NCBI GenBank assembly: GCA_964421955.1 | Contig: CAYQYU010000010.1 | Coordinates: 1-36,498, forward strand | Reading direction: 5' to 3' | DNA: 36,498 bases | Source: an uncultured archaeon | GTDB taxonomy: Archaea > Nanohalarchaeota > Nanosalinia > Nanosalinales > Nanosalinaceae | Part shown: positions 17,510 through 34,341 of the stretch, in pieces | Position numbering within the stretch: the stretch's first letter is position 1 | Layout of the letters: every line of letters begins with the position of its first letter | Made by a program: the position numbers and the translations under genes | The notes under the pieces: model-generated | What the model saw: only the letters and a program-made list of their open reading frames with translations | Database searches by the model: none | What the model was told of the DNA's origin: nothing

Positions 17510-18820
17510 ATGGATAGCCCCAGCGTGGTTTTCTTGGTTCTCGACAGCCTCAGGAGAGACCGGCTTTCCACATACAATTCCAAAATCGATTTTACAGAGA
17601 GTATAGAAAAGTTCTCGGAGGAGGCCGCGGTCTTTGAAAACGCAGTCGCGAATGCACCTTGGACCCTGCCTTCACACGCGTCGATGTTCACCGGGATGTA
17701 CCCCTGGGAGCATAACGCGACACAGAGAAATCTTTCCCTCGAGGTCGAAAAACCGCTGCTCGCGGAAAGATTCTCGGAGGAAGGTTACTCAACCGCTTGC
17801 ATCTCGACCAACGCCTGGCTGTCCCGCAAGTTTGGACTCGGGAAAGGTTTCGATCTCGTGGACAACCTTAGCTCCGGCGGGCTCTCCGAGAAGCTGTCGA
17901 AGATAAGGAGGACTATGGATGAATGGCTTTCAAGCCCGGGGAACGAACAGCTGAAACGACTGATCGTGAGACTCGGCAACAGTCTCTTCCATTACTGGAA
18001 CAGCGGGAGCCAGACAGAGGAAGTGCTGGAGAGAGGAAAGGAATTTATCGCTGAAAACGACCAATTCTTCCTCTTCCTGAACCTGATGGACGCTCACGAG
18101 CCTTACTTCCCGCCGGAAGAATACCGGGAGAAACACGGAGCGCCCTCGCCGAGAGAAATATGCCAGGACCCTACCGACTACCACTTCGGACGGAAGCAGC
18201 CCGACTTTGATGCGATAAACAGGATATACGACGCCTCGGTTGACCACGTGGACGATATGCTGGGCGAGTTCTTCGACTACCTGAGAGATACCGGTAGATG
18301 GGAGGGCACAGTCTTGATCGTGACCTCAGATCACGGCCAGATGTTGGGGGAAAACGAGGAGTATGGCCACCAGTTTTCGGTGGCGGAGTCTCTGGTGTCA
18401 GTTCCGCTAATGGTGAAAGGTGCGGAGGATGTCGATAGCCAGGTCGAGCTACGGGAGTTATATGATATTGTGCTCAACGCTGCAGGTATAGAACCCGGAT
18501 ACGAGGCTGGCACCAGGTTTGCGAAGGGGAGCTACGAGTTCCCTGACATGATGCGACCCCGGATCCCTCCCAAAAAATGGCGGGATTTCTACCGCCGCCA
18601 CAAGTTTGCCAGGTCACTGGACGGCCGGGTCACTCGTTCGGAGAATGAGGAAGAAGAGGTCGAAACCAAGTTCGAGGGCTTCAGCAAGGAACTTTCAGAC
18701 GAAGAAAAACGGCGGCTGGAGGAGAAGCTCGAACTGATCGGTAAATCGGAAAAAGGCGAGGACCTTGAAGAACATACTGACGAGATAAGGAGGAAACTGA
18801 AGGATCTCGGGTACGGCTAG
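17510..18820 (+). CDS. Sulfatase-fold (AlkP superfamily) protein, non-FGly type, LGY tail
   Basis: VLDSLR, PWTLPSHASMFTG, DAHEPY, TSDHG, GH; ends EIRRKLKDLGYG. Confidence 0.9.
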   Translation: MDSPSVVFLVLDSLRRDRLSTYNSKIDFTESIEKFSEEAAVFENAVANAPWTLPSHASMFTGMYPWEHNATQRNLSLEVEKPLLAERFSEEGYSTACISTNAWLSRKFGLGKGFDLVDNLSSGGLSEKLSKIRRTMDEWLSSPGNEQLKRLIVRLGNSLFHYWNSGSQTEEVLERGKEFIAENDQFFLFLNLMDAHEPYFPPEEYREKHGAPSPREICQDPTDYHFGRKQPDFDAINRIYDASVDHVDDMLGEFFDYLRDTGRWEGTVLIVTSDHGQMLGENEEYGHQFSVAESLVSVPLMVKGAEDVDSQVELRELYDIVLNAAGIEPGYEAGTRFAKGSYEFPDMMRPRIPPKKWRDFYRRHKFARSLDGRVTRSENEEEEVETKFEGFSKELSDEEKRRLEEKLELIGKSEKGEDLEEHTDEIRRKLKDLGYG

Positions 18821-18875
18821 GCGAAAGAATTCTGGAAATGTTTTAATTCTCATGCTGACCCTTTCAACAATATAG

Positions 18876-19784
18876 ATGGACACCGGAAAACGTTTGAAGC
18901 AGCTGGCAAGCATCCTTATCACGGCAGGAGGTTTCTACATAGTTCTCAGGAACCTCGACCTGTCCAAAGCCTGGACTGCCCTGGTATCAGCTGATCCTCT
19001 TTATTTCGCCGCGGGAAGCATTGTGCTTGTCTTCATCTATTTCCTGATGGGTGAGAGATGGAGGGTGATACTCGGCGACAAAGAGGTCGAGGTAAGTCAG
19101 ATGAAGGCTTTTGAACAGCTTCTGGTATCAGATTTTGTCAACAGCTTTCTGCCCGCCAGAGCCGGGGACATCTACCGCGGCTACATGGCCTCCGGGGAAG
19201 AAAAGTCGACTCTCGATACCTCGGTGATGGTGCTGATGGAGCGGGTGATGGACGTGACCGCTATCACGCTGCTCCTCTCGCTGGCGCTGGTCAGCTTCTA
19301 TCCCGGCAAGAAATTCATCATGTATCCTGCCGCAGCCGGAGCACTCCTGCTGATAGGATTAGCAGGCCTCTATCTACTCTGGAAACTCGAAGAGCCTCCG
19401 ATCCCTCTCCTTGAAAAATACTATTCTACGCTGAGAGGGGTGATAGTCGAGAACTTCACCACCACGAGACTCGTGGAACTCTTCCTTCTAACTGTGGTTA
19501 TCTGGATGATGGGTGTCGCGAGAACCTTTACAGTTTTCGAGGCCCTGGGAATCCCCGCAGGAATCGGGCTGATAACTGTTGTAACGTTTCTCTGGGCCGT
19601 CATAGCTGTTCTCCCTCTCACTCCCGCTGGCCTCGGCGCCACGGATGCTGCCGTGTTCCTGCTCCTGGCGAGCACAGGCTTCGGATCTGCGGAGGCCGCG
19701 GCCTTCATCGCGCTCAACCGACTGATGCTCCAGGGAGTTCCAGTGATCCTGGGAGGATCGCTCTACATCAGAAGATCAGGCTAG
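18876..19784 (+). CDS. Lysylphosphatidylglycerol-synthase-TM / flippase-like (UPF0104) protein
   Basis: RW, FVNSFLPARAGDIYR, ERVMD, PLTPAGLG motifs; multi-TM. Confidence 0.88.
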   Translation: MDTGKRLKQLASILITAGGFYIVLRNLDLSKAWTALVSADPLYFAAGSIVLVFIYFLMGERWRVILGDKEVEVSQMKAFEQLLVSDFVNSFLPARAGDIYRGYMASGEEKSTLDTSVMVLMERVMDVTAITLLLSLALVSFYPGKKFIMYPAAAGALLLIGLAGLYLLWKLEEPPIPLLEKYYSTLRGVIVENFTTTRLVELFLLTVVIWMMGVARTFTVFEALGIPAGIGLITVVTFLWAVIAVLPLTPAGLGATDAAVFLLLASTGFGSAEAAAFIALNRLMLQGVPVILGGSLYIRRSG

Positions 19785-19785
19785 C

Positions 19786-20154
19786 TCATTCCTCTCTTTC
19801 TTCGGAATATGGATCCTCCACGCGCGTGATATCGTCGGGCCGATATGGGAAAGAAATCTCGAGTACCTCTGCGACTTCGCCGCCTATATTCTGTATCTGG
19901 TGTCTCTGGCCTGACCGGATAACCTTTGCGCCGCCGTTCTCCAGATCCTCGAGTTCATCATCTCTTCTCAAGACCACGTTGCCTTCCTGAAGGTAGATGA
20001 CGTCGGCCTGTTCGTCGTGGTAGGAGTAAGAAGTCATCCCCTCCGCGTCTATGACCAGTCTGCGGATTCCGAGCATTCCTGTGCGATCTCCAACATCGAC
20101 CTGGGTGATCAGAACCTGGTCCTCGTAGCCCCAGGGTTTCTCTATACGCCCCAT
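19786..20154 (-). CDS. Cupin protein, mannose-6-phosphate isomerase type II-like
   Basis: IEKPWG, SYSYH, GQRHQIQN, LEIS, DDITRVEDPY. Confidence 0.8.
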   Translation of the reverse strand: MGRIEKPWGYEDQVLITQVDVGDRTGMLGIRRLVIDAEGMTSYSYHDEQADVIYLQEGNVVLRRDDELEDLENGGAKVIRSGQRHQIQNIGGEVAEVLEISFPYRPDDITRVEDPYSEEREE

Positions 20155-20179
20155 GCACCTTCAAGGACGCTCAAACTTC

Positions 20180-21118
20180 TTATACGTGATTCTGGTAGTA
20201 CTCCACCGTCTTTTCAAGACCTTCTTCAAAGCTGTAATCCGGCTCGTAACCCAGAGATTTCCGGGCACGGGAAATATCCGCCTTTGTGGTCTGGACGTAC
20301 TTTTCACGGGGATTGTCTACATGTTCTGCCTCTATATTCTTCCCGAGAACCTCGTTTAGCTTCTCAACCACCTGGTTGAACGAAACGTCTTTCCCGGTTC
20401 CAACATTGAAGTATTTACCGTCGATCCCTTCTTTCCGTTCAGCCGCGAGAATGTTCGCGGTCACGACATCCTTCACAAATGTGAAGTCCCTTGTCTGTGA
20501 ACCGTCCCCCCAGATGACAGGTTGCTCGTCCTCCATCATCTTCCAGAGGAACTGGGTCACGATGTTGGCGTACTTGCCCTTCGATCTCTCATGCGGTCCG
20601 TAGACAGAAAAGTAACGCAGACCTGTGGTCTCCACACGATTATTGTAGGAGTAAACCTGTGCGTATCTTTCGCGAGACATCTTCGATGCGGTATAGAGGT
20701 TGGTAGGTACCTCTTCCATGTCTTCCCTGTGGGGCGGCTCGACGCTCCCGTACATCGAACTCGTCGAGGCATACACTATCTTCTCGACGCCGGCCTCTAT
20801 CGCCGCCTCGGCCGTGGTCACGAAGCCTTCAATATTGACACGGCATCCTCTCTGCGGGTTTTCCTTATGCATGGGGGAACTTGAGCGGGCGGCCTGATGG
20901 AAAACCGTATCGCAGCCTTCTACTGCGGCCTCAACTTTTTCGCGGTCGAGAACCGATCCCTTCACAAATTCTATCTCGCTTTCAACTTCCGATAGGTTTT
21001 CCCTTGATCCAAGGTAGAGGTCGTCCAGAACCACTACTTCAATATCGCGTTCTACAAGCTCCTCGACCAGATTAGAACCTATGAATCCCGCTCCTCCTGT
21101 CACTAGCGCCTTTTCCAT
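20180..21118 (-). CDS. NAD-dependent nucleotide-sugar epimerase/dehydratase
   Basis: TGGAGFIG, YASTSSMYG, YTASK, RYFSVYGP, GDGSQTRDF. An alternative GTG start at 21148 overlaps the pfkB-family stop. Confidence 0.93.
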   Translation of the reverse strand: MEKALVTGGAGFIGSNLVEELVERDIEVVVLDDLYLGSRENLSEVESEIEFVKGSVLDREKVEAAVEGCDTVFHQAARSSSPMHKENPQRGCRVNIEGFVTTAEAAIEAGVEKIVYASTSSMYGSVEPPHREDMEEVPTNLYTASKMSRERYAQVYSYNNRVETTGLRYFSVYGPHERSKGKYANIVTQFLWKMMEDEQPVIWGDGSQTRDFTFVKDVVTANILAAERKEGIDGKYFNVGTGKDVSFNQVVEKLNEVLGKNIEAEHVDNPREKYVQTTKADISRARKSLGYEPDYSFEEGLEKTVEYYQNHV

Positions 21119-21144
21119 GGTATAATTTCGACCTGAAACGTTTT

Positions 21145-21996
21145 TCACTCTAACTCAGTTCTGCCCGGGAGGGCCGACATCGCTCCCTTTGCCGTGGTCG
21201 ATATAGATGCGGCCTTCACAGCTTTCTGAAGAGCTTCTCTCTTACCGCGGTTCCGGAAAGCAAGGTATGTTCCTGTCAGGGCGTCTCCAGCCCCTGTAGT
21301 ATCGACTACCTTAACATCTTCTGCGTCTTCGCCGAACCGATCTTCCGGTGTCACCAGCTCAGCTCCACTGCTCCCTCTTGTGATAATTATCTCGCCCACC
21401 TTCTCTCTCAGTCTCTCCAGACCTCCGAAGAACTCAATTTCCTCTTCAGCCGCGGTGAGAATATCGACGTGGTTGATCAGCCGTTTTAGCCTTTCCTCGT
21501 ACTCCGCCGACATTAGATCCTCTCTCAGGTTGGGATCAAAGCTTACCGGGGCATCGATACTCTCTGCAAACTCCAGGACGTTTCCGGCAGTCTTCTCATC
21601 GGTCAACGGCAGAGAACCCAGGTGTACTATTCCTTCAGGTTCCAGGTCAAGCTGTTCAGTTGAGATATGCTCATCAGCCTCCCTGTAGAACATGAAGTGC
21701 GGTTTCGCGCCCTCATCAAGAGATGCAAAAGCCAGTGTCGTCCTTTGGTCCAACTTTTCTATTCTGTCTGTTCCCACTTCCTCTTCCCGGAGCTTTTCCA
21801 GCAGGAATTCTCCGAACTCGTCTTCCCCGACAGTCGCTACCATCTCCACATCCGCGCCGAGGCGTGCAGCGGCGACCGCAACGTTGGCAGGAGCACCACC
21901 CGGCCTCTTGGAGAACTCTGTGTTTTCCTCAAGGCTTTTCCTTTCCTCCCCTATAAAATCTACCAGGAGCTCCCCTACACAGACAAGATCACTCAT
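21145..21996 (-). CDS. PfkB-family carbohydrate kinase (fructokinase-like)
   Basis: GELLVD, GGAPANVA, FDPNLR, VDTTGAGD. Confidence 0.93.
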   Translation of the reverse strand: MSDLVCVGELLVDFIGEERKSLEENTEFSKRPGGAPANVAVAAARLGADVEMVATVGEDEFGEFLLEKLREEEVGTDRIEKLDQRTTLAFASLDEGAKPHFMFYREADEHISTEQLDLEPEGIVHLGSLPLTDEKTAGNVLEFAESIDAPVSFDPNLREDLMSAEYEERLKRLINHVDILTAAEEEIEFFGGLERLREKVGEIIITRGSSGAELVTPEDRFGEDAEDVKVVDTTGAGDALTGTYLAFRNRGKREALQKAVKAASISTTAKGAMSALPGRTELE

Positions 21997-22810
21997 ACCT
22001 GAGATCCTTGACCTCTTCTATCTTCTTCTGGAGTTCTCCAGAGTTCCTAGCCAGTTCTCCCGGGAACGCATAACCATCTGAAATATCAAGATCGTTCTCC
22101 TCAACGTATCTTCTTGTATCCTCTATGTCGTCGCCCACCAGGTAGTGCATCAGAGCCGATGTAAACTCGTGATCCTTCGAATCCACAGAGTAGACCGAGG
22201 CTTCCGTGACCTTTTCAGCGTCCTCAGGCGAGTCTCCTATAGCTATGCCGTATCCTCCCGTTGCCACGGCGTATCTCATGGCTTCCAGATCCGTGTCGCT
22301 GTCTCCAATATATGTCACATTCACCGGCCCTTCAACAGGGTCGATTCCCTGCCCGACAAGATGATTCTGCATCCTGACTGGTTTCTGGTACCTTCCGTTA
22401 AAGCTCGGGCCTTCTTCCGTGAGTTCACCGGCGATCTTGCCGTCAAAGTGGCCGTTGGTTACTGCATCAATAGCGGGTTTCCATCCTGCAGAATGGGCAA
22501 CAAGAACGTATTTGTCCGAGAAATCTTCTATTACCGATTCCATCCCTCTCCGGGGCCTGGGTTCGAGATTTCTGGCCGCCGCTTCGAGATCATCTACTTC
22601 ACCGTTTCCATCGAGGTAGAGAAGCAGTTCGTTTCCCTTCCCCTCAGGAGGCTCTCCTTCCCTGGGATCGTGGAAGGTAGCCATCAGATCTCCAAACTCG
22701 TCTCTGGAACAAACTCCGGCGTTTACAAGGGTTTCCTGCCCTGTATCTCGGGGATCTACAGTCCCGTCTATATCGAAAAACACTACTTGTCCAGACTCTT
22801 TCTCAGGCAT
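21989..22810 (-). CDS. HAD-superfamily hydrolase
   Basis: Motif I FFDIDGT, motif II HSAG, Lys in YQKP, motif IV IGDSDTD; 8-nt overlap with the kinase gene. Confidence 0.8.
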   Translation of the reverse strand: MPEKESGQVVFFDIDGTVDPRDTGQETLVNAGVCSRDEFGDLMATFHDPREGEPPEGKGNELLLYLDGNGEVDDLEAAARNLEPRPRRGMESVIEDFSDKYVLVAHSAGWKPAIDAVTNGHFDGKIAGELTEEGPSFNGRYQKPVRMQNHLVGQGIDPVEGPVNVTYIGDSDTDLEAMRYAVATGGYGIAIGDSPEDAEKVTEASVYSVDSKDHEFTSALMHYLVGDDIEDTRRYVEENDLDISDGYAFPGELARNSGELQKKIEEVKDLRYE

Positions 22811-22888
22811 AGTATTACGATGTATTACTTATCGTTTTTAAATGGTGCGGTCCTGATCTTTATGAACCGAAATCACAAACTCGGTTCT

Positions 22889-23323
22889 ATGCGGAACAAC
22901 CTGCTCCGGTCGATCATCGACAGCGAATCCCGTGCCTATGGATTCACGATCGCTTTCTGGGGTTCCGGGATGATACTCGTCAGTACCTTTGGAGCGCCAG
23001 GAATAACAGGAGTCCTTTACTATGCGCTCGGTGCAATAACAGGCTTCGGTCTAACAACGCTCCTGGCGTACGAGCATTTCTTCGGATCACCGGACTATGA
23101 GCAGCCCGAGTACCTGATTTTCAGCACCATACACTACCTTTCGTCACTCGCACCGATAATCGCTACCTACTTTTACACGCTTGCATATCCATCCCTGATC
23201 GGTTCGGGGATGGTCTTCTTCCTCTCGGGAGTCTCCGTTTCATTCACCTACAACATCCTGATGCTCGTGGAGGAAAAAATCTCGGAAGAGGTAAAGCAGC
23301 TCGAAGAGAGAATCCTGAAATAG
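22889..23323 (+). CDS. Hypothetical membrane protein (about 4 TM)
   Basis: ESRAYGFTIAFWGSG followed by hydrophobic helices. Start at 22889 or 22862; the longer ORF-track version is antisense to the HAD gene. Confidence 0.75.
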   Translation: MRNNLLRSIIDSESRAYGFTIAFWGSGMILVSTFGAPGITGVLYYALGAITGFGLTTLLAYEHFFGSPDYEQPEYLIFSTIHYLSSLAPIIATYFYTLAYPSLIGSGMVFFLSGVSVSFTYNILMLVEEKISEEVKQLEERILK

Positions 23324-24211: not shown

Positions 24212-25012
24212 ATGGATGTCCCTCCTGTAATCTACCGGATGTACCGGGAGCGGTTTTACCCGTTAATTTCGGACACAGTTCTTGAAGATGCCGTGCACGA
24301 GACTCTGGTAAAGCTCTCACAGGCAGGCATAGAAAAGGTGGACGAGAGCCGGGCAGAGGGAATATACGAAAAAGGCGGCTGGGACAACCTGATAATACTG
24401 GATGCCTGCCGGTACGATTTTTACCGAGAGAAAGTAGGAGATGTAGACTACCGGATAACTCTGGGAAGCAACTCGAGAGATTTCATACGCGAGACTTTTT
24501 CCGGGCGAGACTGTTCGGATACTGTTTACGTCTCGGGAAACGCCCACACTGATGAAGAAATATTCATGGAGATAACAGGCAGGAGTCCGGGACAGGTTTT
24601 CCACGAGATTTTCCAGGTCCACGAGACCGACTGGATAGGTGAAGAAGGAGCGAATCCTGGAGCCATAGTCAGGGATGGCAGAACCGCTCGCAAACTCTGG
24701 CCTGACAAAAAACTGGTCATACACCTCATGCAGCCACATCTACCGTTCATAGCGCGTGAAGAGGACAAAGAAATAGACTACGAGAAGGCCAAGAAAGGAC
24801 AAATCGATGCAGAGAGAGTCAGGAACGCGTACGAGAGAAATCTTGATTACGTCCTTGAAGGACCGCTCCAGGAGCTCCTGGAGGCCCTGGACGGAGAAAC
24901 AGTTATCACCGCGGATCACGGGGAATTCCTTGGCGAGAACAACAGGTACGGTCATCCCGGAGGATGCAGCGAAGAGATACTCAGGAAAGTCCCCTGGCAC
25001 AGAGTTGAATAA
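24212..25012 (+). CDS. AlkP/sulfatase-superfamily protein (short haloarchaeal type)
   Basis: WDNLIILDACRYD, HLMQPHLPF, TADHGEFLGE, GH, KVPW. Confidence 0.85.
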   Translation: MDVPPVIYRMYRERFYPLISDTVLEDAVHETLVKLSQAGIEKVDESRAEGIYEKGGWDNLIILDACRYDFYREKVGDVDYRITLGSNSRDFIRETFSGRDCSDTVYVSGNAHTDEEIFMEITGRSPGQVFHEIFQVHETDWIGEEGANPGAIVRDGRTARKLWPDKKLVIHLMQPHLPFIAREEDKEIDYEKAKKGQIDAERVRNAYERNLDYVLEGPLQELLEALDGETVITADHGEFLGENNRYGHPGGCSEEILRKVPWHRVE

Positions 25013-25054: not shown

Positions 25055-25972
25055 TCACATGTAACCCAGTTCCCTCAGCTTGTTCATGATCTCCTTGTCG
25101 TCCTTGTTCTGGGCCCTCCCGGCGCGCTCCTTGGTGTTCTCTACGTCCTGGAGCCAGGCAGGTTCATCCTCGTGCTTGTCGGTAGAGACCTCCGAGCCCA
25201 GGGATCGGAAGCCCGCCCAGTACTTCGGACTGATCGGGACATCGTTCTTTGAAAGCCCTTCCGGTAGATCTTCAGGGCTCTCCGGGTACTCCTCGATATC
25301 CACGCCGGTGATGTCCGGCACCATGTGGAACCAGGATACGTCCCACACGTCTCGCTCTGTTAACTGGAGAATCGGGTGGACTCGCATGTGATCAGGGTCT
25401 TCCCTCGGAGAGTAGAAGTCTTCGTCGCCGCGGGACTCGTGCTCGTCCCATCGCACACCGTTAATGACTGCTTCAACATCGTGGTTTTCGAGCAGCTCGT
25501 TCATGGGAACCGTCTTCAATAGATGGTTGCCTGCCTCAGTGTCCATCAGCCACGGTACTTCCTCGTAGTCGCCGACACGTTCAGCTTCCTCCTGGTTCCG
25601 CTCATTAAGTTCGGCAACCGGAACTTTATCACCAGGATTCTCGGCCTTCTCTATCAGGTCCTCGTTTTTCGCGACCATGACTTCGAAGCCCCAGTCATCC
25701 GCGAGTCTTCGGACATAATCCTCAAGCTCCTCAAAGTGCTGGCCGTGGTCCACGAACATGAACCTTGGCTTCTCCCAGCCTTCTTCCTCGCATACTCGCT
25801 TGACGAGCCAGGCGGTAATAGTCGAATCCTTGCCGCCGGTGAATCCGATTACAGAGTTCTCCGGTCCGTACTCCTCCAGCGCACGTTTCACAACCTCTTC
25901 TCCGGCTCTTATTTTGGCTTTTGTGGGTGCTTTCTCGATCTCTTCTCGTGTTACAGGTGGTTCTGGTGTCAT
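25055..25972 (-). CDS. PAPS-reductase-family adenine-nucleotide-binding protein, CysD-like (sulfate adenylyltransferase subunit 2 type)
   Basis: PP-loop FTGGKDS, GVRWDEHESR, RVHPIL, GFRSLG, ERAGRAQ. It lacks the CC/CxxC Fe-S ligands and C-terminal ECGLH of true reductases; ends EIMNKLRELGYM. Confidence 0.82.
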   Translation of the reverse strand: MTPEPPVTREEIEKAPTKAKIRAGEEVVKRALEEYGPENSVIGFTGGKDSTITAWLVKRVCEEEGWEKPRFMFVDHGQHFEELEDYVRRLADDWGFEVMVAKNEDLIEKAENPGDKVPVAELNERNQEEAERVGDYEEVPWLMDTEAGNHLLKTVPMNELLENHDVEAVINGVRWDEHESRGDEDFYSPREDPDHMRVHPILQLTERDVWDVSWFHMVPDITGVDIEEYPESPEDLPEGLSKNDVPISPKYWAGFRSLGSEVSTDKHEDEPAWLQDVENTKERAGRAQNKDDKEIMNKLRELGYM

Positions 25973-25988
25973 GTTATCACGAAGTATT

Positions 25989-26762
25989 CTAGTCAACGCC
26001 GTAGTAGTCGAGAATTGCCTTCCCGACATCCTCCGGCTGGTTGATCTCGTAGTCGACGTTGTTTGTGATTAAAACTGCGTCCTCGTGGTGGTCGCCCTGT
26101 AGCTTGCCGTGCGGTGTCTCTTCAGGAAGTGTTTGTACGCGGCCCTCGCCGAACTCTGCGAAGCCGTGGTCACTCAGCACGATTAGCGGTTCATCGCCTG
26201 AGAAGTCATAGTAATTGAGCAGTTCGCCTAGGACTTCGTCCATCTTCCTGTACCACTCGAGTATCAGTTCCCTGTCGTTCCAGTAGAAGTGTGAGACGCG
26301 GTCGAGCTGCATGAAGACGACGGCGAAGAACTCGGGATCGTCTTCCAGCACTTCCCTGCATTTATCCAGCAGCTTCTTCCGGTCGGCTTCCAGTTCATCC
26401 AGGTCGCTAGAGACTCCGAAGCCCTCTGGCTCGTAATCTGTATTCCAGTTGATCGGAGGTATCACAGAGGGAACCTGGAGCACGCGTGCATCCACCTCTC
26501 CATCAAGCTTCTCCCAGACGAAAGTCCCCTCGATATCTTCTCGCTTCTGCAGCTCGTCATCGACCACGAAGTCCTTGTGGCCGTGTTCTTTTTGCGAAAG
26601 ACCTGTGAAGATTGATGTCCAGAGCGGCGCGCTCTTGGGCGTCTCCTCTACAGTTACGGTCTTGTAGTCGCATTCCTCCATCAGACGGTCGAAGTTCGGG
26701 AGCTCGTCTCTGTTGGGTTTGATGATGTCCCATGTTGCAGCGTCGATTCCAATAACTTTCAT
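25989..26762 (-). CDS. AlkP superfamily / type I phosphodiesterase-like protein (short)
   Basis: IGIDAATW, SAPLWTSIFTG, LDRVSH, LSDHGF, GDH. Confidence 0.85.
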   Translation of the reverse strand: MKVIGIDAATWDIIKPNRDELPNFDRLMEECDYKTVTVEETPKSAPLWTSIFTGLSQKEHGHKDFVVDDELQKREDIEGTFVWEKLDGEVDARVLQVPSVIPPINWNTDYEPEGFGVSSDLDELEADRKKLLDKCREVLEDDPEFFAVVFMQLDRVSHFYWNDRELILEWYRKMDEVLGELLNYYDFSGDEPLIVLSDHGFAEFGEGRVQTLPEETPHGKLQGDHHEDAVLITNNVDYEINQPEDVGKAILDYYGVD

Positions 26763-26817
26763 AGTATCTTTTCGTCCAGCGTAAAGATTTGAGAAAATCT
26801 ATGATTTTCGACCATTG

Positions 26818-27021: not shown

Positions 27022-27032
27022 CAGTTGAAAAC

Positions 27033-27233
27033 CTATCTATCCATGTATCCTAGTTTCTCCAGCTTTTTACCAATCTCCTTTATGTCGTCTTCCGACAGAT
27101 CTCTTTCGTCCTCAGGCATCCTGTTCTCCGCCAGCTCCTCCAGCTTGTCCTGGACAAAGCGAGACAGGTTGATATGGTTCTCGTCCACGAACTCGGCGAG
27201 CTCGTCGGGCAGGGAGATCGTCTTCCTCTTCAT
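27033..27233 (-). CDS. Small RHH-like protein with acidic linker and LGY tail
   Basis: MKRKTISLPDELAEFVDENHINLSRFVQDKLEEL beta-helix-helix pattern; ends EIGKKLEKLGYMDR. Confidence 0.75.
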   Translation of the reverse strand: MKRKTISLPDELAEFVDENHINLSRFVQDKLEELAENRMPEDERDLSEDDIKEIGKKLEKLGYMDR

Positions 27234-27273
27234 ATAATACATAAGTTAATTAAGATATTAAATAAGTTTTTCT

Positions 27274-28716
27274 TCAGAACGATATGTCCTCCACCTCCAT
27301 CGATCTGATCTCCTCCTCAAGATCGGGGACCAGTTCCGAAGGCAGTGAGCCATCCAGGTCATCGGGAACAGGCTCTCCCAGAAGGGTGTAGATTAGCGGA
27401 GCCACATCGCAGATATAGAGGTCCTCCTCTGCATCTTCGTCGACGTCCGGGCCTCTGGCGAAGAACACTCCTGTCTCGTCGTGGGTGAAGGAGTTGGTCT
27501 TATCAAAGATTGACGAGGAGTTCTCGGAAGAGATGATGACGCCCTTTCTTGCCTTCACGACGACATCCGGCCGGTCCTCTGCATCAGGATATATTTCTTC
27601 ACCTCTCCAGACTTCCTCTATCAGCTTTTCCCCGTCCTGCTCCAGGGAGCCGAATTTTTCAACCAGACTTTCAACTATCTCCTCCCGTTCTTCTTCAGGG
27701 ACTTTTCCGTGCGGGAGATCTTCTGTATGAACCTTCAGGCCCGCCTCCCTGCCCTCGGTGAAGTACGGAAGAACTCTGGAACTCTTCGATACGCCGCTGA
27801 GTGCTCCTGATTCAAAGCCGGTCAGGTCTGCTCCTGTCTTTGACTCGAAGAAGTCGTGAGCGTACTTTAGATACTTCTTGAGGCCTGTGTCCAGGAACGG
27901 CTTTGCAAGCCGGTAGACCGGCGTCTCGCTCTTCCCATCCTCAAACTCCAGGTAGCCCTCTTGCTCCAGAAACGTGGAAATGTTGAACTTTAGCTTTGCC
28001 TTTTGAAAGCCGTGGTCCGAGACCACAATCAGTTTGGCGTCGTTCTCTTCCGCCTTCTCGATGAACTCTCCTATAGTTTCATCAACGTACTCGTAGGCCC
28101 TGAGAACCGTTTTCTCTCTTTCCGAGAAGTGTCCTGCCCTATCGACGAGCTGGAATACCGATACGAACACGTCCGGCCTCTTTTCATAGATGTGCTGCGA
28201 AACTATCTTCTCCTTCCGGAAATTCTCTTTCTCCGTCTTGATCTTCGAACTGGCGGTCGTCCGGGAGTGAGAACTCTGCTTGGAGATGTCGAGCTTTCCC
28301 TCCAGTTCTTCTTCAAGCTCATCAGGATAGAACTCGAAATTGTTCGCGAGCGATCCCGAACGCATCCATCCGTTAACGGGGTAGACGGGCGAGGTTCCCG
28401 GGATAAAGTGGAGACCCACCTTTCCGTCTATGCGGTCCCAGAACATCTTGCCCCGGAAGTAAGACGAGTCGGGGAAGCGGGCGCCCCAGTTCTCAAAGTC
28501 CGCCATCGCCAGGTGGTACGCCTCGAACTTGTCTGGCGTGTAGCCGGAGAACATACAGGGCCATGCAGGGATAGTTATTGCAGGAACAGTGCTCGGAAGC
28601 TCGGTGTAGAACGATTCTCCCACCAGTTTTTCCCAGTTCTCTAGCTCATACTTCTCCATCGCCTTTCTCAGGTACTCGGGATCGGCACCGTCTATACCAA
28701 GCACAATCAGATCCAT
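27274..28716 (-). CDS. AlkP superfamily / type I phosphodiesterase-like protein
   Basis: LGIDGA, STVPAITIPAW, VDRAGH, VSDHGF, DVAP, DLDG; ends EVEDISF. Confidence 0.9.
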   Translation of the reverse strand: MDLIVLGIDGADPEYLRKAMEKYELENWEKLVGESFYTELPSTVPAITIPAWPCMFSGYTPDKFEAYHLAMADFENWGARFPDSSYFRGKMFWDRIDGKVGLHFIPGTSPVYPVNGWMRSGSLANNFEFYPDELEEELEGKLDISKQSSHSRTTASSKIKTEKENFRKEKIVSQHIYEKRPDVFVSVFQLVDRAGHFSEREKTVLRAYEYVDETIGEFIEKAEENDAKLIVVSDHGFQKAKLKFNISTFLEQEGYLEFEDGKSETPVYRLAKPFLDTGLKKYLKYAHDFFESKTGADLTGFESGALSGVSKSSRVLPYFTEGREAGLKVHTEDLPHGKVPEEEREEIVESLVEKFGSLEQDGEKLIEEVWRGEEIYPDAEDRPDVVVKARKGVIISSENSSSIFDKTNSFTHDETGVFFARGPDVDEDAEEDLYICDVAPLIYTLLGEPVPDDLDGSLPSELVPDLEEEIRSMEVEDISF

Positions 28717-28791
28717 TTTTCTTACTCTCCTGCGTTACACGATACTTCCACTGTTAATGATAATAAAATAACCGGATTCAAAACTATTGAC

Positions 28792-30351
28792 ATGGGTAGG
28801 AGCAGCATAATAAACGCGATAGTGAAGGGCGCAGGCATCGCTGCAGTCGGAGCGATAGTATCCAAGCTCCTCACATACGTCTACCGGCTGGCGGTCGCGC
28901 GCTACATCGGACCCGAGGCCTACGGGCAGTTAACGCTCGCGCTCACCTTCCTGAGCATAACAGGGACACTATCCTTGCTCTCCGTCAACCAGTCGATAGT
29001 CAAGTACGTTTCGGAGTACCGGGCCAACGACGACTGGGCCTCCATAAAAGGCGCTGTACTGTCATCTCTTCACCTCATAATGCCGACCTCCGTCATCAAC
29101 ATACTGGTTATGTACTTCACGGCGGGCTTCGTGGCCCGGAACATCTTCAAGAACTCCAGCCCGGAGTTCATCTTCATAATCCAGATACTAGCGTTCGTAG
29201 CGCCCTTCAGCAACACCTCTAGCGTCTTCATCGACACCATAAAGGCTTTCAAGAAGATGAGATACGTCGTCTTCACCAACAGGATATTCCAGAATCTTGT
29301 ACAGCTCGTCGTTACACTTATTTTGGTATCTCTTGGCTACGGCCTTATTGGAGCGGCCTGGGGCTGGCTCGCGGGAGTCGCCCTGTCATCCCTCCTGGCT
29401 TTCTACTTCATGGAGAGGAAGATTGGCCCGATCATTTTCCGGGACGTGAAACCCAACTACCAGCGCAGAAAGATACTCCGTTTCTCCACCCCTCTGCTGT
29501 TCTCCGCACTTATGGCCACGATACTCGGCTGGATAGACACGATCATACTCGGATACTACCTCAGTGAGTCGCTCGTGGGCATCTATAATGCCGCGTTCCC
29601 GACCGCGATGCTGGTTTTGATACCTTACAGCGCCCTTAACACGCTCGCGCTACCATCACTTTCCGAGGTGCATGAGACGGGAGAAACATCCTTATCCACC
29701 ATCGTCAAGACTATTGCCCGGTGGGCGGTGATCGCCAGCTTCCCTCTTTTTATCCTGATGGCTCTTTTCTCCGAACAGGTCTTACATCTACTGTTCGGCA
29801 AACAGTACATCCCGGCAGCGACCGCGCTGATAATACTCTCGGCGGCCAACATAACGAGCGCCATGATAGGCCCTCTTTCAGACCTCCTGAAATCCGTGGA
29901 GAGAACGGATATACTTTTCAAGAACAGCGTTGTAGCTCTCGTGCTGAACACCTCGTTCAACATCTTCTTCATCCCGGAATGGGGCCTGGGACTCGGTATT
30001 GAAGGTGCTGCGCTTGCCACCTTCCTCACAACCATTCTGATGAACGTCGTGATAGTGGCGGAGGCCTACTACTTCGAGAGCGTGACTCCGTTCCACGTCG
30101 ACATATGGAAACCTGTCCTCGCAGCCATAGTGCCCCTGGTACTGGTTTACGCCGGCCTGAAGATGCTATTCACGACCGTGCCTCTATGGGTGCTCTTCCC
30201 TGCCGGAATAGTGTTTGCCGCGCTCTACCTCGCGACCTTTGTGCTCCTCGGAGGCATAAACGAGAGAGATATAGAGATAATAGAGGGTGTCGGGGAGAAG
30301 ATAAACAGGAAGGAAGAGGCGGAAAGGCTAGCAAGAATCCTGAAGAGATGA
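28792..30351 (+). CDS. Wzx/MOP-family oligosaccharide flippase
   Basis: ARYIGPEAYG, IDTIILGY...VGIYNAA, GIEGAALAT; about 14 hydrophobic segments. Confidence 0.92.
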   Translation: MGRSSIINAIVKGAGIAAVGAIVSKLLTYVYRLAVARYIGPEAYGQLTLALTFLSITGTLSLLSVNQSIVKYVSEYRANDDWASIKGAVLSSLHLIMPTSVINILVMYFTAGFVARNIFKNSSPEFIFIIQILAFVAPFSNTSSVFIDTIKAFKKMRYVVFTNRIFQNLVQLVVTLILVSLGYGLIGAAWGWLAGVALSSLLAFYFMERKIGPIIFRDVKPNYQRRKILRFSTPLLFSALMATILGWIDTIILGYYLSESLVGIYNAAFPTAMLVLIPYSALNTLALPSLSEVHETGETSLSTIVKTIARWAVIASFPLFILMALFSEQVLHLLFGKQYIPAATALIILSAANITSAMIGPLSDLLKSVERTDILFKNSVVALVLNTSFNIFFIPEWGLGLGIEGAALATFLTTILMNVVIVAEAYYFESVTPFHVDIWKPVLAAIVPLVLVYAGLKMLFTTVPLWVLFPAGIVFAALYLATFVLLGGINERDIEIIEGVGEKINRKEEAERLARILKR

Positions 30352-30352
30352 T

Positions 30353-30568: not shown

Positions 30569-30630
30569 TATGAATCACGTCTAACTTTCAACGGGAGAGC
30601 TTATTATTTCTTTCACCCGCAACTTCTGGT

Positions 30631-31623
30631 ATGCCGGAATTCGAAAACATCTTCATCTACGTTTCAGATGCGCTGAGATACGATCACGTACCGGAATCAA
30701 TCGCAGAGTCAAGAAATATCGTACCTACGCTTGTTCCTGCAGGATACACCCCCATCTCGTTTTCATCTCTAGTCACGGGGCTTGATCCGAGGAAACACGC
30801 GGTGAGATCATTCTACGACACCCTGGAGATGGAGACGGTATTTGAACGTTTCGATGACCACTCCTACTACGACCATCCGGACGACGCGATGAGCCGGAAC
30901 GTGATGAAACATTTCGACAGGAAAGAGCTGGAGGACCAAGAGCCTCCTTTCATACATGTCGAGAGGGCTCTCGACACCCACGCACCGTATGGCCAGATGG
31001 AACACGGCAACGAAATCCACGAGGAGGAACAGGAAGGAAGTTTAAAGGAACAGTACAGGCGCGGCGTTGAGTCAACAGAGGAGCACTTCTGGAGCCACGT
31101 CGAAGAGCTGAAGGATCGTGGACTCTACGAGGACACTCTCATCATCTTCACCTCTGACCACGGAGAATGGCTTGGAGAGAAAGTGCTGGGCAAGAAACGC
31201 CACGACCATAACTGTCCTGTAAGAGAAGAACTGTGCGTCGTCCCGACCGTGTTCCTGAACTATGAAAACAGCTGGGATCGGGCAAGAACGATCGACATAC
31301 TGCCGACCGCGCTCTCGATACTCGGAAAGGAAACAGTGGGAGAGGGCTTCGATCTGCGGGATAGGGAGCCTGATTCTGGCCACTCGATGCTACAGGTAAA
31401 CACCCACCCGCTGATAGTTACTGGTAGCGAGTGGCGCTGGGACAGTCAATGGAAGATAAGCAAGGGCAAGCTCAGGGTGGACGCCGCCACCAAGTTCATT
31501 GACTGGATAAACCCGATACGCCAGCCTTTGAGAAACACAAAGATCGGGGACCTGTTCGGCTCAGACAACTCGGTACAGCAGAAGTTCTATGCTGATGACG
31601 AGCTTGAAGGGATCGACTTCTAG
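30631..31623 (+). CDS. Sulfatase-like AlkP superfamily protein
   Basis: YVSDALRYD, YTPISFSSLVTG, DTHAPY, TSDHGE, DILPT; ends ELEGIDF. Confidence 0.87.
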   Translation: MPEFENIFIYVSDALRYDHVPESIAESRNIVPTLVPAGYTPISFSSLVTGLDPRKHAVRSFYDTLEMETVFERFDDHSYYDHPDDAMSRNVMKHFDRKELEDQEPPFIHVERALDTHAPYGQMEHGNEIHEEEQEGSLKEQYRRGVESTEEHFWSHVEELKDRGLYEDTLIIFTSDHGEWLGEKVLGKKRHDHNCPVREELCVVPTVFLNYENSWDRARTIDILPTALSILGKETVGEGFDLRDREPDSGHSMLQVNTHPLIVTGSEWRWDSQWKISKGKLRVDAATKFIDWINPIRQPLRNTKIGDLFGSDNSVQQKFYADDELEGIDF

Positions 31624-31630
31624 AAGTCGA
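31613..31630. repeat. Perfect 18-bp palindrome centred on overlapping convergent stops
   Basis: TCGACTTCTAGAAGTCGA equals its own reverse complement. Confidence 0.9.
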
Positions 31631-33071
31631 GGTCGTGCACGTCCTCGCTGGTTGTTTCCCGCTGTCTCTTCCCAGGTTCAGAACTCGCGGAGAAAATATC
31701 CATGACCTTGCCGTCCATCTCTTCAGGAATATCCTCGCCAAAGTAGTGCAGAACCGTCGGGGCGAGATCCACAAGCTCCGCGTCCTCTTCATCAAAGTCG
31801 AAAACGTTGCCATAAAGTCCTATGTAGCCCTGCTTCCGGTGCATGTAGCTCGAGAGTTTACCAGTCACGTTCGGCTTTATGTCGGAATCGTTCTTCACTT
31901 TTTCCTCGAACACGACTACCAGGTCAGGGAATGTTTCCACGTCAACATCAAAGGCCTCTTCTTTCAAAAGCACATTTTCAACCAGTTCGTGCCGCTCCAG
32001 TTTGCCCTTGATCTCCTTCTTCTTGGCCTGACGATCTTCTACAGTACCTTGAGGAAATCTATCATCGTTTATCCAGATGCCGGCGTATCCGCATACTCCT
32101 GTCATGTAGGAGAATGCCTCTGTACCTTCCCAATCTATCGAGTCGAAGTCCAGGTCTGTCGAGACAAATTTTTCTCCAGCGATGTTTCCGTAGAGATCAT
32201 TGATTCTCACAAGGTAGTCTCTCAGGCCCGCGCTTTCGAAGACTTCCGCAGTCCCGAGAACCAGCGATTTCAATTTCTCTTTTACCCTCGAACTCTCTTC
32301 CTCTTTCATTTCCAGGAAGCCGTTCTCTCTCAGCCAGGTATTGATGGAGAAACGTCTATCGGCCTTGACTGCGCCGTGGTCTGAAAGCGCGATTATGTTC
32401 ACATCACGCTCCATCAATTCTCCTAGGAGTTCATCACATTCCCTGTAAGCATCCAGCATGATCTCTTCATCGGAGCAGTGGTGCATCATGTTATCGGGCA
32501 GCCGGAAAACCATGAAGTAGACCTCCGCATCCTTCCTGTCCATCAACCATTCCAGGGTGTCCCTGCGCTTCTCAAAGGAGTCGTAGAAAGACTCTCTCCT
32601 CTCCTTCTCGCTCCCAAAGTAGTCTATGCCCTCTAGCCTGAACTCGCCCAGGTCTTCCTCCATCTCGGTGTAGAGCTCTTCCGGGTAGGTCGATTGGGTC
32701 GACACGTCGAATATGCCGCCGACCATCCATCCGTCGATCTCGTGCACGGTCGCGCCGGGAACATCCGCTATCGCGGACTTTCCATCCATGTAGTTCCAGA
32801 ACTCCTGGAACCAGTACCGCTCCTGTCCCGCAGGAGCGAATCCATAGTTCTCGAAGTCTATAACCTGGAAATCAAATCTCTCCAGCTTCTCGGGCTTCTT
32901 GCCCGTGAAAGACGATATCCACGCCGGCACAGTTATCGGAGGCAGGGTTGACTCCAGCAGCCCTGAATTACCCGATTCGTCGAGCTGCCTTAAGTTCTCC
33001 AGCTCATCGATATTGTTCTCGATCAGGTAGGGATCGATGCCGTCGAGGCCCAGTATGACGAGAGGCTTCAT
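31620..33071 (-). CDS. AlkP superfamily / type I phosphodiesterase-like protein
   Basis: LGLDGID, STLPPITVPAW, PDNMMH, LSDHG, DLAPT, EMDG; ends DVHDLDF; ATG 1 nt after the upstream stop. Confidence 0.9.
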   Translation of the reverse strand: MKPLVILGLDGIDPYLIENNIDELENLRQLDESGNSGLLESTLPPITVPAWISSFTGKKPEKLERFDFQVIDFENYGFAPAGQERYWFQEFWNYMDGKSAIADVPGATVHEIDGWMVGGIFDVSTQSTYPEELYTEMEEDLGEFRLEGIDYFGSEKERRESFYDSFEKRRDTLEWLMDRKDAEVYFMVFRLPDNMMHHCSDEEIMLDAYRECDELLGELMERDVNIIALSDHGAVKADRRFSINTWLRENGFLEMKEEESSRVKEKLKSLVLGTAEVFESAGLRDYLVRINDLYGNIAGEKFVSTDLDFDSIDWEGTEAFSYMTGVCGYAGIWINDDRFPQGTVEDRQAKKKEIKGKLERHELVENVLLKEEAFDVDVETFPDLVVVFEEKVKNDSDIKPNVTGKLSSYMHRKQGYIGLYGNVFDFDEEDAELVDLAPTVLHYFGEDIPEEMDGKVMDIFSASSEPGKRQRETTSEDVHDLDF

Positions 33072-33072
33072 C

Positions 33073-34341
33073 TCAGTCCCTGTAACCAAGATTCCTTAGA
33101 CGCGATTTTATCTCCTCTTCCTCATCTGCTTCAACCTTTCCGCGGAAATCCTGGAGAACCTGGGAGAATTTTTCTATCCGATCTGGTTCCTCTTCCGAGA
33201 TATCATCGGTTTCTCCAGGATCCTCCTCGATATCGTAGAACCTGTCCTCATCCTTCCTGAAGTCACGGATGAGCTTGTATTCCCGCGATCTCAGGGCCGC
33301 CTTCTGCCTTTCATCGGTGTTCACCTCGGCGTAGGCGTACTCTGGAGAGGATTCAAACAGGTCGACTCCGTCGAAACTCTCCTGATCGAAGTCGAGATCG
33401 CAGGCGCTCAACGCCGTCGGAAGAATGTCTATACTTCTCGCGAGCCTGTCCCACTTCTCGCCGGACTCGAGGAGCGAATCGTCCCTAGACCACAGAACCA
33501 AGGGGACGTTGAGAACGTTATCATACAGGAAGTTGCCGTGCTCGTACCGTTTTTCCTCCTGTCTCTCCTGATGCTCGTTGAAGCTCTCGCCGTGATCGCC
33601 GAAGACTACTATCAGCGTGTCCTCCAGAGCATCTTCATCCTCCAGAATCCTGATCATTTCTTCAATATACTCGTCAGCCTCCTTGAGAGATTCTCGATAG
33701 CCCCGCTCAACTCTTTCAGGATATTCTTCTATCAGGTCTCTTATCCGCTCCATCCGATAGTTCCAGAAATACTTGATTGGGTATCTCAGGATCTCCTTCC
33801 AGAAAGGTCTATTATAGCGGCCCATGTAACCCCTCGGAAACAGTTTCTGCTGTATTCTCAGGGCTACGTTTGCAAAGAAATCCCGCATCCCACTGACTGG
33901 AAGCCGAGTCCTGTAAGGAAGATGGGTGTTCCAGTAGTGGATGAAAAGGAATAGATCATCCTCTCTAGTCTCCTGAATTGCCCCCTCCACATTCGAAATC
34001 TCGTCGGAGCCCGCGTAGCTCCATCCTCTAAATCCGCGGTCTTTCAACATCCCGGAGCCCAAGAGCGTCCTCACCTCGAAACCGTTCTGGTCAAAGAAGC
34101 TGAACACAGTTTCCATTTCTTCATCCTTCAGTGCTCCTCCCAGGCTTCTGATGCCCGAGTTTTTCGGGAGCTTCCCTGTCAGGATCGATCCGTGGTTGCC
34201 TGTGTGAGGCATCTGGACGAACGTGTCTGGAAAGTGCTCTCCCTCCTCGCATATCCTGTCGATAGCCGGAGTGTCTAACGGGCTTTCAGGGCCAAAGTAA
34301 TCACTCCTAGTGCTTTCAAGGGAGAGGAATATGACATTCAT
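33073..34341 (-). CDS. Sulfatase-fold protein, non-FGly type, LGY tail
   Basis: LSLESTR, PHTGNHGSILTG, HYWNTHLPY, GDHGE, HG, VPL, DILPT, YDIEEDPGE; ends EIKSRLRNLGYRD. Confidence 0.9.
   Translation of the reverse strand: MNVIFLSLESTRSDYFGPESPLDTPAIDRICEEGEHFPDTFVQMPHTGNHGSILTGKLPKNSGIRSLGGALKDEEMETVFSFFDQNGFEVRTLLGSGMLKDRGFRGWSYAGSDEISNVEGAIQETREDDLFLFIHYWNTHLPYRTRLPVSGMRDFFANVALRIQQKLFPRGYMGRYNRPFWKEILRYPIKYFWNYRMERIRDLIEEYPERVERGYRESLKEADEYIEEMIRILEDEDALEDTLIVVFGDHGESFNEHQERQEEKRYEHGNFLYDNVLNVPLVLWSRDDSLLESGEKWDRLARSIDILPTALSACDLDFDQESFDGVDLFESSPEYAYAEVNTDERQKAALRSREYKLIRDFRKDEDRFYDIEEDPGETDDISEEEPDRIEKFSQVLQDFRGKVEADEEEEIKSRLRNLGYRD

Follow-up and report, generated by a model that had tools for sequence, protein, structure and literature searches.

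What do seven proteins of the alkaline phosphatase (AlkP) fold contribute to the glycosylation locus of an uncultured nanohaloarchaeon, when none of them carries the signature of a formylglycine sulfatase and one is encoded directly beside a CysD-like PP-loop adenylyltransferase? The genes (AlkP1 to AlkP7 and the CysD-like gene) lie in the window analysed here, the whole 36,498-nucleotide stretch of contig C10 in a 922,649-bp genome of 27 contigs (completeness 98.8%), where an aglB-anchored glycosylation locus spans positions 11263-36496 in a Pfam scan of the window proteins (Table 1). Our answer, to which we attach moderate confidence and which is drawn from sequence comparison, is that the CysD-like protein would make adenosine 5′-phosphosulfate (APS), that the AlkP enzymes with their threonine or serine nucleophiles would sulfate a lipid-linked glycan before it is flipped across the membrane, and that the synthesis of 3′-phosphoadenosine 5′-phosphosulfate (PAPS) would not be required. 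The original prediction, that these proteins are biosynthetic transferases and not degradative sulfatases, agrees with four independent lines of evidence: the published genetics of Agl30 and Agl31, the pairing of AlkP3 with the CysD-like protein, the fusion of such proteins into single chains, and, in relatives, the mutual exclusion of Sat-CysC and the CysD-like gene, whose place in the locus Sat-CysC takes.

Seven AlkP-fold proteins and their CysD-like partner

The seven genes had been proposed to encode AlkP/sulfatase-fold proteins with no evident signal peptide, no CxPxR motif and threonine or serine at the nucleophile position, interleaved with a CysD-like gene, a DUF2061 gene, a Wzx flippase and glycosyltransferases, and this description holds throughout. 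All seven are present at the proposed positions, as are the interleaved genes by Pfam. Six exceed the Pfam gathering scores, AlkP1, AlkP5 and AlkP7 with PF00884 and AlkP3, AlkP4 and AlkP6 with PF01663. AlkP2 reaches 18.7 bits with the Sulfatase model (cut-off 25), and its family profile aligns with that of AlkP1 over 180 columns (hhalign; 98% probability, E 2.5e-13). Candidate metal ligands are invariant within the families: D64, H176 and D235-H236 in AlkP2; D12, T52, D274-H275 and H287, including the nucleophile position, in AlkP1; and D7, S44, D154, H158, D198-H199 and H225-H226 among 12 AlkP3 orthologues that are 71-86% identical. None of the seven proteins contains a 19-residue segment with a Kyte-Doolittle value of at least 1.6, their isoelectric points lie between 4.3 and 4.9, and each opens directly on the first strand of the fold. 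Like the CysD-like protein, all seven are acidic and predicted to be soluble, and the AlkP proteins are further predicted to be cytoplasmic.

The motif C/S-x-P-x-R occurs in none of the seven sequences; the metal ligands are retained while threonine or serine takes the place of the formylglycine cysteine. In AlkP1, alignment with solved S1 sulfatases places Thr52 opposite the formylglycine cysteine and His56 opposite the arginine, within a segment reading T-L-P-S-H. Ser44 of AlkP3 aligns, in a weak match (E 0.033), with a residue of ENPP4 that we take to be its nucleophilic threonine, Thr48 of AlkP4 and Thr53 of AlkP6 fall in a common aligned motif, and all three proteins retain these residues together with the Asp/His ligands. 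Thr47 of AlkP7 was also positioned by alignment, and Thr40 of AlkP5 and Ser86/Ser88 of AlkP2 were assigned from motifs alone. The proteins share with S1 formylglycine sulfatases the fold, the N-terminal metal-binding aspartate and the DHG and GH motifs, but differ in reading T-x-P-S-H for C/S-x-P-x-R, in the absence of a formylglycine-generating enzyme (FGE) or anaerobic sulfatase-maturing enzyme (anSME), and in their cytoplasmic, biosynthetic context. With the NPP/ENPP (nucleotide pyrophosphatase/phosphodiesterase; PF01663) family they have in common the fold, the Thr/Ser nucleophile motif and the D..H and DHG metal ligands; here, however, similarity to solved members is weak, the proteins are predicted to be cytoplasmic, AlkP3 is a minimal form of 257 residues, and pairing is with two unrelated sulfate-activating enzymes, the CysD-like protein and Sat. 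Judged by their sequences, the seven proteins cannot be true sulfatases.

About ten AlkP genes other than iPGM (cofactor-independent phosphoglycerate mutase) are present genome-wide, seven of them packed into 17 kb of 923 kb, and all seven lie within 21 kb of AglB. Among the paralogues outside the window, one at C12:4540-5871 is AlkP1-like with a serine nucleophile (W-S-L-P-S-H) and an LGYM tail, and AlkP2-like and weak AlkP3-like copies occur at C11:15269-16069 and C6:1993-2568. A partial AlkP7 copy of 67-85% identity on a short N-containing contig (G000:C24:1-1989) represents either a variant strain or a fragment left by the assembly.

The family profile of the CysD-like protein finds CysD as its top solved match (1ZUN_A, E 5.3e-16), with an alignment that runs from the PP-loop through residue 324 of 325, followed by FAD synthase (3e-10) and PAPS reductase (9.7e-6); profiles were required at this step, single-sequence searches of solved structures being weak for both the CysD-like protein and AlkP4. 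The TGGKDST PP-loop is invariant in the family, and the C-terminal FR[ST]LG ... ER.GR..D ... GY elements also align with CysD. No cysteine is invariant among 16 aligned members, so that the protein is not a CysH-type reductase. It differs from CysD in that archaeal members have serine for the cysteine of the LGC motif and in that its partners, whether separate or fused, are AlkP domains and not a GTPase, with the sole exception of P0295 described below. Identity is 80-89% across Nanohaloarchaea and about 53% to halobacterial proteins, far above that of AlkP1 (40-65%) or of the neighbouring glycosylation genes. Because homologues have 304-305 residues, the start is probably Met20 (25972).

Gene order and gene fusion connect this protein to the AlkP proteins. 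Of 23 nanohaloarchaeal loci, 19 offer at least 800 nt of upstream flank, and in 18 of these the gene immediately upstream of the CysD-like gene, in the same orientation, is an AlkP3 orthologue with 41-87% identity (the exception is L012). An NPP-type AlkP gene also adjoins the CysD-like gene in 22 of 57 halobacterial loci, and Pfam agreed in both of the two that were checked. AlkP3 itself is fused to the CysD-like protein in L021 and in P0241-P0243; in Ca. Nanohalalkaliarchaeum the two form a single open reading frame (ORF) of 570 residues. More broadly, 54 of 58 homologues of 568-2000 residues combine an N-terminal AlkP with a C-terminal CysD-like domain, in hosts that include Nanohaloarchaea, Thermoplasmata, Desulfovirgula, Deltaproteobacteria and others. 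The AlkP parts are nearest to AlkP3, AlkP1, AlkP7 or AlkP4. Of 49 sulfatase-type fusions that were aligned, 48 have threonine at the formylglycine position and one is truncated at its N-terminus; the archaeal ones read H-W-T-L-P-S-H, identical to the AlkP1 motif. When the 150 top-ranking cluster representatives in the CysD-like family are considered, 18 have 642-849 residues with the CysD-like match at the C-terminus, and we read these too as AlkP-CysD-like fusions. Together the gene pair and the fusions link the two kinds of protein. One metagenomic protein, P0295 (720 residues; a single sequence), joins an NPP-like AlkP domain, a G domain resembling EF-1alpha/CysN and a CysD-like domain.

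A second connection may lie in the C-termini. AlkP1 ends in ...KLKDLGYG, the CysD-like protein in ...KLRELGYM, AlkP7 in ...RLRNLGYRD and a 69-residue protein of the same gene run in ...KKLEKLGYMDR, and an LGY tail is found in 115 of 120 AlkP1 homologues, 97 of 120 CysD-like homologues and 57 of the 58 long homologues; canonical CysD terminates in a homologous ...GY-x. The pattern, [LIM]-x-x-L-G-Y or more fully [IM]xx[KR]L[KR]xLGY[GMR], is encoded at 18790-18820, 25055-25090, 27033-27070 and 33073-33110 of the window and in the outlying paralogue G000:C12:4540-5871. A different tail, [DG]-[IL]-[DS]-[FIL], ends AlkP4 (...EDISF), AlkP5 (...EGIDF) and AlkP6 (...HDLDF), at 27274-27290, 31605-31623 and 31620-31640, and also the long NPP-type AlkP proteins of the related loci L081, L083 and L085. 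These tails may be docking peptides, which is a conjecture. In 13 nanohaloarchaeal loci a homologue of the 69-residue protein precedes the AlkP3/CysD-like pair, and two further loci have one immediately in front of Sat (L085) or of AlkP-Sat-CysC (L082). The small protein follows the sulfate-activation module whichever enzyme is used, and is a possible regulator or adaptor of it.

Candidate sulfate-activating genes in the genome, the phylum and the Halobacteria

Searches for canonical sulfation machinery covered the whole 98.8%-complete genome. They returned no APS kinase above cut-off, no ATP-sulfurylase and no dedicated CysN, and no match to Sulfotransfer_1, _2 or _3 at E <=0.1; tblastn with the P-loop sulfotransferase of relatives gave only hits of E >0.5. 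The original prediction had named a canonical PAPS sulfotransferase elsewhere in the genome as a finding that would speak against it, and none was detected. There is likewise no FGE-sulfatase match and no anSME candidate, the lone radical-SAM protein (contig C9) looking Elp3-like by eye. A second PAPS_reduct match, on contig C14, resembles by eye the NcsA/TtuA type of tRNA thiolation protein, and neither of these two proteins is taken to be connected with sulfur esters. No reductase of the CysH type is left in the genome, and sulfate assimilation is accordingly unavailable.

A survey of 70 genomes of the phylum shows what takes the place of the CysD-like gene in some of those that lack it. The gene is present in 40 genomes, in 38 of them intact or cut only by contig ends, and Sat with an adjacent APS kinase in 8, while no genome holds both Sat-CysC and an intact CysD-like gene (Fisher p 0.0011, uncorrected for relatedness). 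AlkP genes co-occur with the activating genes: the median number of PF01663 matches is 5 in genomes with either activating gene versus 1 in those without, where iPGM alone, which gives one match in the window's own genome, is taken as the baseline. Sat-CysC, usually with a PHP protein (presumably a possible phosphatase of 3′-phosphoadenosine 5′-phosphate, pAp), sits inside AlkP loci equivalent to that of the window. In family f4, where the CysD-like gene is absent (0 of 10 genomes), two genomes have an AlkP-Sat-CysC operon (L082, L084). In two genomes of family f1 (G037 and G054) a sulfotransferase-PHP-CysC-Sat cassette adjoins split, degenerate remnants of the CysD-like gene (L081:9481-10155 and L086:43-690; 32-48% identity, core motifs missing), and G037 retains AlkP3 at 74% identity. 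The third family-f1 genome with Sat, G035, retains no more of the CysD-like gene than a fragment of 100 residues, on a different contig (G035:C24:44544-44831), and its Sat locus L085 opens with the first 18 residues of the AlkP3 gene, 83% identical. Because it is Sat-APS kinase that replaces the CysD-like gene in AlkP loci, sulfate is the probable substrate of the CysD-like chemistry. The Sat-APS kinase-P-loop sulfotransferase route presumably reaches the same end result, and its first two enzymes occupy the corresponding loci of these 8 relatives, but it employs unrelated folds and PAPS as donor and was not found in the window's genome.

In a sample of 101 Halobacteria the CysD-like gene is present in every genome and Sat in 3, and no full-length APS kinase was found in the Haloferax and Halobacterium genomes examined. 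A second, tandem CysD-like paralogue (41-46% identity) lies directly downstream of the first in 8 of the 57 loci from Halobacteria, with Haloferax, Halogeometricum and Salinigranum among the sources (L027, L032, L046, L053, L057, L064, L065 and L076), and could represent a heteromeric form. The equation of the Haloferax CysD-like protein with Agl7 (HVO_2046), which according to excerpted text contributes to the sulfation of dolichol phosphate (DolP)-hexose (PMC3892788), was dropped: in three loci the tandem CysD-like genes lie among purine, transport and nuclease genes. Further papers in which HVO_2046 appears offered no annotation of it.

Genetic precedent for AlkP-fold proteins in sulfation comes from Halobacterium salinarum. 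According to the text searched of Zaretsky et al. 2025 (PMC11980604), Agl30 (VNG1056C) and Agl31 (VNG1057C) are AlkP-fold 'sulfatase-like' proteins of the aglB cluster that are required for sulfation of the DolP- and N-linked tetrasaccharide, the pentasaccharide of Haloferax volcanii becomes sulfated when they are expressed there, Agl31 is soluble and cytosolic, and a third AlkP of the cluster, VNG1063H, has no sulfation phenotype. The same searched text names neither sulfate donor nor mechanism (the words PAPS, donor, adenosine, catalytic, cysteine and formylglycine occur 0 times each), and PAPS is likewise unmentioned in a 2025 follow-up. The seven proteins of the window resemble Agl30 and Agl31 in fold and in being encoded in an aglB-anchored cluster, and resemble Agl31 in predicted solubility; the published pair acts on the lipid-linked glycan before flipping, the stage that we propose for the window's enzymes. 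They differ in belonging to another phylum, in numbering seven, compared with two or three, and in their coupling to a CysD-like enzyme, of which the text searched gives no hint. By sequence AlkP1 matches 52 solved structures, which include the two named as closest in the text searched (6HHM and 5G2U; PMC11980604). In 5 of 13 genomes of the genus Halobacterium, 4-13 kb separate aglB from a gene of the sulfatase family, AglB having been placed by Pfam STT3 because tblastn with the nanohaloarchaeal protein missed it. ORFs read from four of these genomes (G180, G150, G181 and G176) contain W-[TS]-x-P-S-H, and the LGY tail closes every AlkP ORF detected in those aglB loci.

A proposed route for sulfate and its alternatives

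In the route that we propose, the CysD-like PP-loop enzyme would adenylate sulfate to APS, as its homology and its replacement by Sat in relatives suggest. The seven cytoplasmic AlkP proteins would then accept the sulfuryl group and transfer it, at the cytoplasmic face, onto hydroxyls of the glycan that dolichol phosphate carries. Transfer would probably go by way of a covalent sulfo-Thr/Ser intermediate, in a mechanism like that of the Thr-nucleophile transferases LtaS, EptA/MCR-1 and OpgB, and Agl30 and Agl31 are the genetic precedent. From the levels of conservation, AlkP3 would be the conserved core partner of the CysD-like protein and the variable paralogues would serve different acceptor positions. 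Finally, the gene content suggests that Wzx would flip the modified glycan and AglB would transfer it to protein. The comparisons themselves show the gene anatomy, the motifs, the missing canonical pathway, the pairing, the fusions and the pattern of displacement; the route built on them, with APS as the direct donor and a covalent Thr/Ser intermediate, is what we infer.

Several observations weigh against this route. To our knowledge, the Thr-nucleophile AlkP enzymes that have been characterised transfer phosphoryl and not sulfuryl groups, and we know of no enzyme activity or glycan structure from a nanohaloarchaeon. Canonical CysD alone is nearly inactive and the formation of APS is strongly unfavourable, yet the CysD-like protein has no CysN partner: there are only two EF-Tu-type G-domain matches genome-wide, and so no dedicated CysN. 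The CysD-like protein itself scores 75.9 bits with its top NCBIfam model, CysD NF003587 (cut-off 195), and 50.5 with TIGR02039 (cut-off 396.6), and the NPP-type proteins give weak E-values against solved structures. A canonical P-loop sulfotransferase accompanies Sat-CysC-PHP in all three family-f1 loci; such a cassette could be self-contained, and therefore the displacement argument is not airtight. Two genomes, G030 (93% complete) and G067 (92%), have several AlkP genes and neither activating gene. The universality of the CysD-like gene in Halobacteria suits a general housekeeping function no less than one specific to glycans, and in the three Haloferax loci examined the gene stands outside any agl cluster. 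Finally, the likeness to Agl30 and Agl31 was judged by fold, by cluster position and by the motif and tail of aglB-proximal AlkP proteins in the genus Halobacterium.

The difficulty over phosphoryl transfer leads to an alternative that we regard as unlikely, in which the AlkP proteins would transfer a phospho- or nucleotidyl-substituent (phosphosugar, phosphoglycerol or AMP) and the CysD-like protein would adenylate some anion other than sulfate or produce a different adenylated donor. Phosphodiest/NPP members account for three of the seven, and the Thr-nucleophile AlkP transferases LtaS, EptA/MCR-1 and OpgB move phospho-substituents through a covalent Thr-linked intermediate, with a glycan or a lipid and not water as the acceptor. 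The LtaS and EptA models of NCBIfam do match the window's AlkP proteins, although weakly and far below their cut-offs, and the failure of the CysD-like protein at the CysD cut-offs would also be accommodated. Those enzymes, however, are membrane-anchored and extracytoplasmic and draw on lipid phospho-donors, whereas none of the seven proteins has a transmembrane segment or the anchor of the LtaS/EptA type, and what replaces the CysD-like gene in AlkP loci is Sat with APS kinase, which act on sulfate, and a PHP protein. The EF-1alpha/CysN-like G domain in the one fusion P0295 also points away from it, as does the sulfation that AlkP-fold proteins of a haloarchaeal aglB cluster bring about genetically in the text searched of PMC11980604.

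It is decidedly unlikely, in our estimate, that the AlkP proteins are cytoplasmic hydrolases, acting as nucleotide pyrophosphatases on pools of APS, PAPS or NDP-sugars or as esterases that trim precursors, with any sulfation done elsewhere. Both Pfam families consist mostly of hydrolases, NPP enzymes cleave nucleotide pyrophosphate bonds, and the P-loop sulfotransferase of the three family-f1 Sat loci would supply the sulfation in those genomes; yet the window's genome offers no other sulfotransferase candidate. Replacement of formylglycine by threonine or serine reportedly cripples the hydrolysis of sulfate esters and traps the sulfo-enzyme, a result attributed to Recksiek and colleagues (1998), and an APS hydrolase fused to or co-operonic with an APS-forming enzyme would be futile, although fusion is found in nearly all of the long homologues. 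The published genetics cut both ways, in that VNG1063H has no sulfation phenotype whereas Agl30 and Agl31 do affect sulfation (text searched of PMC11980604). A purely incidental co-location, in which the CysD-like protein would be a housekeeping enzyme, for instance an ATP sulfurylase of sulfate assimilation or an adenylyltransferase resembling FAD synthase, strikes us as very improbable. Its presence in all 101 Halobacteria, a conservation well above that of the surrounding glycosylation genes, FAD synthase as the second-best solved relative and the non-agl neighbours in Haloferax would all be expected of such an enzyme. Against this stand its patchy distribution in the phylum, its decay where Sat arrives, its place beside AlkP3 in all but one of the nanohaloarchaeal loci counted, its fusion to AlkP domains, and a genome that lacks the CysH-type reductase for sulfate assimilation.

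A wider and more tentative proposal, which we hold to be possible but somewhat doubtful, is that archaea and some bacteria share an unrecognised class of sulfation free of APS kinase and PAPS. A CysD-type sulfurylase, fused or docked, would hand APS to Thr/Ser AlkP enzymes that sulfate glycans via a covalent sulfo-enzyme, and the LGY peptide of the CysD-like protein, many AlkP proteins and the 69-residue protein would serve for docking. Halobacteria and Nanohaloarchaea would rely on it as their general means of sulfation, and it would supply the donor and mechanism of Agl30 and Agl31.

Organization of the locus and significance

The features of the locus are collected in Table 1. AlkP4, the 69-residue protein, the DUF2061 protein, AlkP3 and the CysD-like protein form a minus-strand run in this order, divergent from Wzx, and the probable start of AlkP6 is an ATG.

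Table 1. Features of the aglB-anchored locus in window coordinates, with strand and basis of assignment.
Feature	Position	Strand	Basis
AglB oligosaccharyltransferase (STT3 family), locus anchor	11263..13725	+	Pfam STT3 5.2e-17, STT3-PglB_core
Glycosyltransferase family 4 (GT4)	13722-14846	+	Pfam; syntenic in relatives
PMT_2-type membrane glycosyltransferase	14843-16618	+	Pfam; syntenic in relatives
Glycosyltransferase family 2 (GT2)	16615-17508	+	Pfam; syntenic in relatives
AlkP1, Sulfatase-fold, soluble (predicted), Thr52 in W-T-L-P-S-H	17510..18820	+	Pfam Sulfatase 8.4e-35
LPG_synthase_TM / flippase-like membrane protein	18876..19784	+	Pfam 2e-37; NCBIfam TIGR00374
Cupin	19786-20154	-	Pfam, NCBIfam; conserved in relatives
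NAD epimerase/dehydratase	20180-21148	-	Pfam, NCBIfam; conserved in relatives
PfkB sugar kinase	21145-21996	-	Pfam, NCBIfam; conserved in relatives
Weak HAD-like	21989-22810	-	Pfam, NCBIfam; conserved in relatives
Conserved membrane protein	22889-23323	+	Conservation in relatives
Ribbon-helix-helix (RHH)-fused NTP_transferase	23324-24070	-	Pfam, NCBIfam; conserved in relatives
AlkP2, short sulfatase-like AlkP, Ser86/Ser88 presumed nucleophile	24212..25012	+	Pfam sub-threshold; hhalign to AlkP1 family
CysD-like PP-loop adenylyltransferase, probable start 25972	25055..26029	-	Pfam PAPS_reduct 1.4e-23
AlkP3, minimal NPP-type AlkP, 257 residues, Ser44 nucleophile	25989..26762	-	Pfam Phosphodiest 4.1e-22
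DUF2061 small membrane protein, 67 residues	26818..27021	-	Pfam 7.1e-16; equivalent position in 6 related loci
69-residue protein, ribbon-helix-helix-like by eye	27033..27242	-	ORF; Pfam matches weak only
AlkP4, long NPP-type AlkP, Thr48	27274..28716	-	Pfam Phosphodiest 2.8e-31; motif alignment
Wzx-type flippase, 12 hydrophobic segments	28792..30351	+	Pfam Polysacc_synt 6.7e-33; hydropathy
AlkP5, short sulfatase-fold, Thr40 in Y-T-P-I-S-F	30631..31623	+	Pfam Sulfatase 1.7e-11
AlkP6, long NPP-type AlkP, Thr53, probable start 33071	31620..33089	-	Pfam Phosphodiest 1.7e-25; motif alignment
AlkP7, sulfatase-fold, Thr47 in H-T-G-N-H	33073..34341	-	Pfam Sulfatase 4e-22, SGSH_C; alignment
GT2	34356-35405	+	Pfam
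Methyltransferase	35428-36099	-	Pfam
Partial NTP_transferase	36086-36496	-	Pfam

Between AlkP1 and AlkP2, the set of cupin, epimerase, PfkB, HAD-like and RHH-nucleotidyltransferase genes (19786-24070) resembles a pathway of the NDP-heptose type in NCBIfam matches that all fall below cut-off: the top model for the epimerase is ADP-glyceromanno-heptose 6-epimerase, and heptose 1-phosphate guanosyltransferase is among the matches of the nucleotidyltransferase, whose fusion to the RHH domain is kept in relatives. A 392-residue ORF on the plus strand (22145-23323) overlaps the HAD-like gene, and its 5′ part is spurious; the real product is a multi-pass membrane protein of 144 residues that belongs to no Pfam family and is kept next to the nucleotidyltransferase in 13 related loci.

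We searched the literature for earlier accounts of a CysD-like/AlkP system or of an APS-dependent sulfotransferase, and nothing relevant came up. That AlkP-fold proteins sulfate archaeal N-glycans is already known, but these searches met no published description of the CysD-like donor module, of its fusions or of its replacement by Sat. Haloarchaea characteristically carry sulfated N-glycans and glycolipids, and the sulfotransferases of haloarchaeal glycans were named only in 2025. The comparative data suggest a concrete and testable answer to the question of the donor. If the route is true, it would be a third kind of biological sulfotransfer, beside the P-loop PAPS enzymes and the arylsulfate sulfotransferases, and it would explain why many archaeal 'sulfatase' annotations are wrong. 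It may also offer PAPS-free sulfation catalysts, and would give a reason why about 8 kb of a 0.92-Mb symbiont genome is devoted to AlkP genes.

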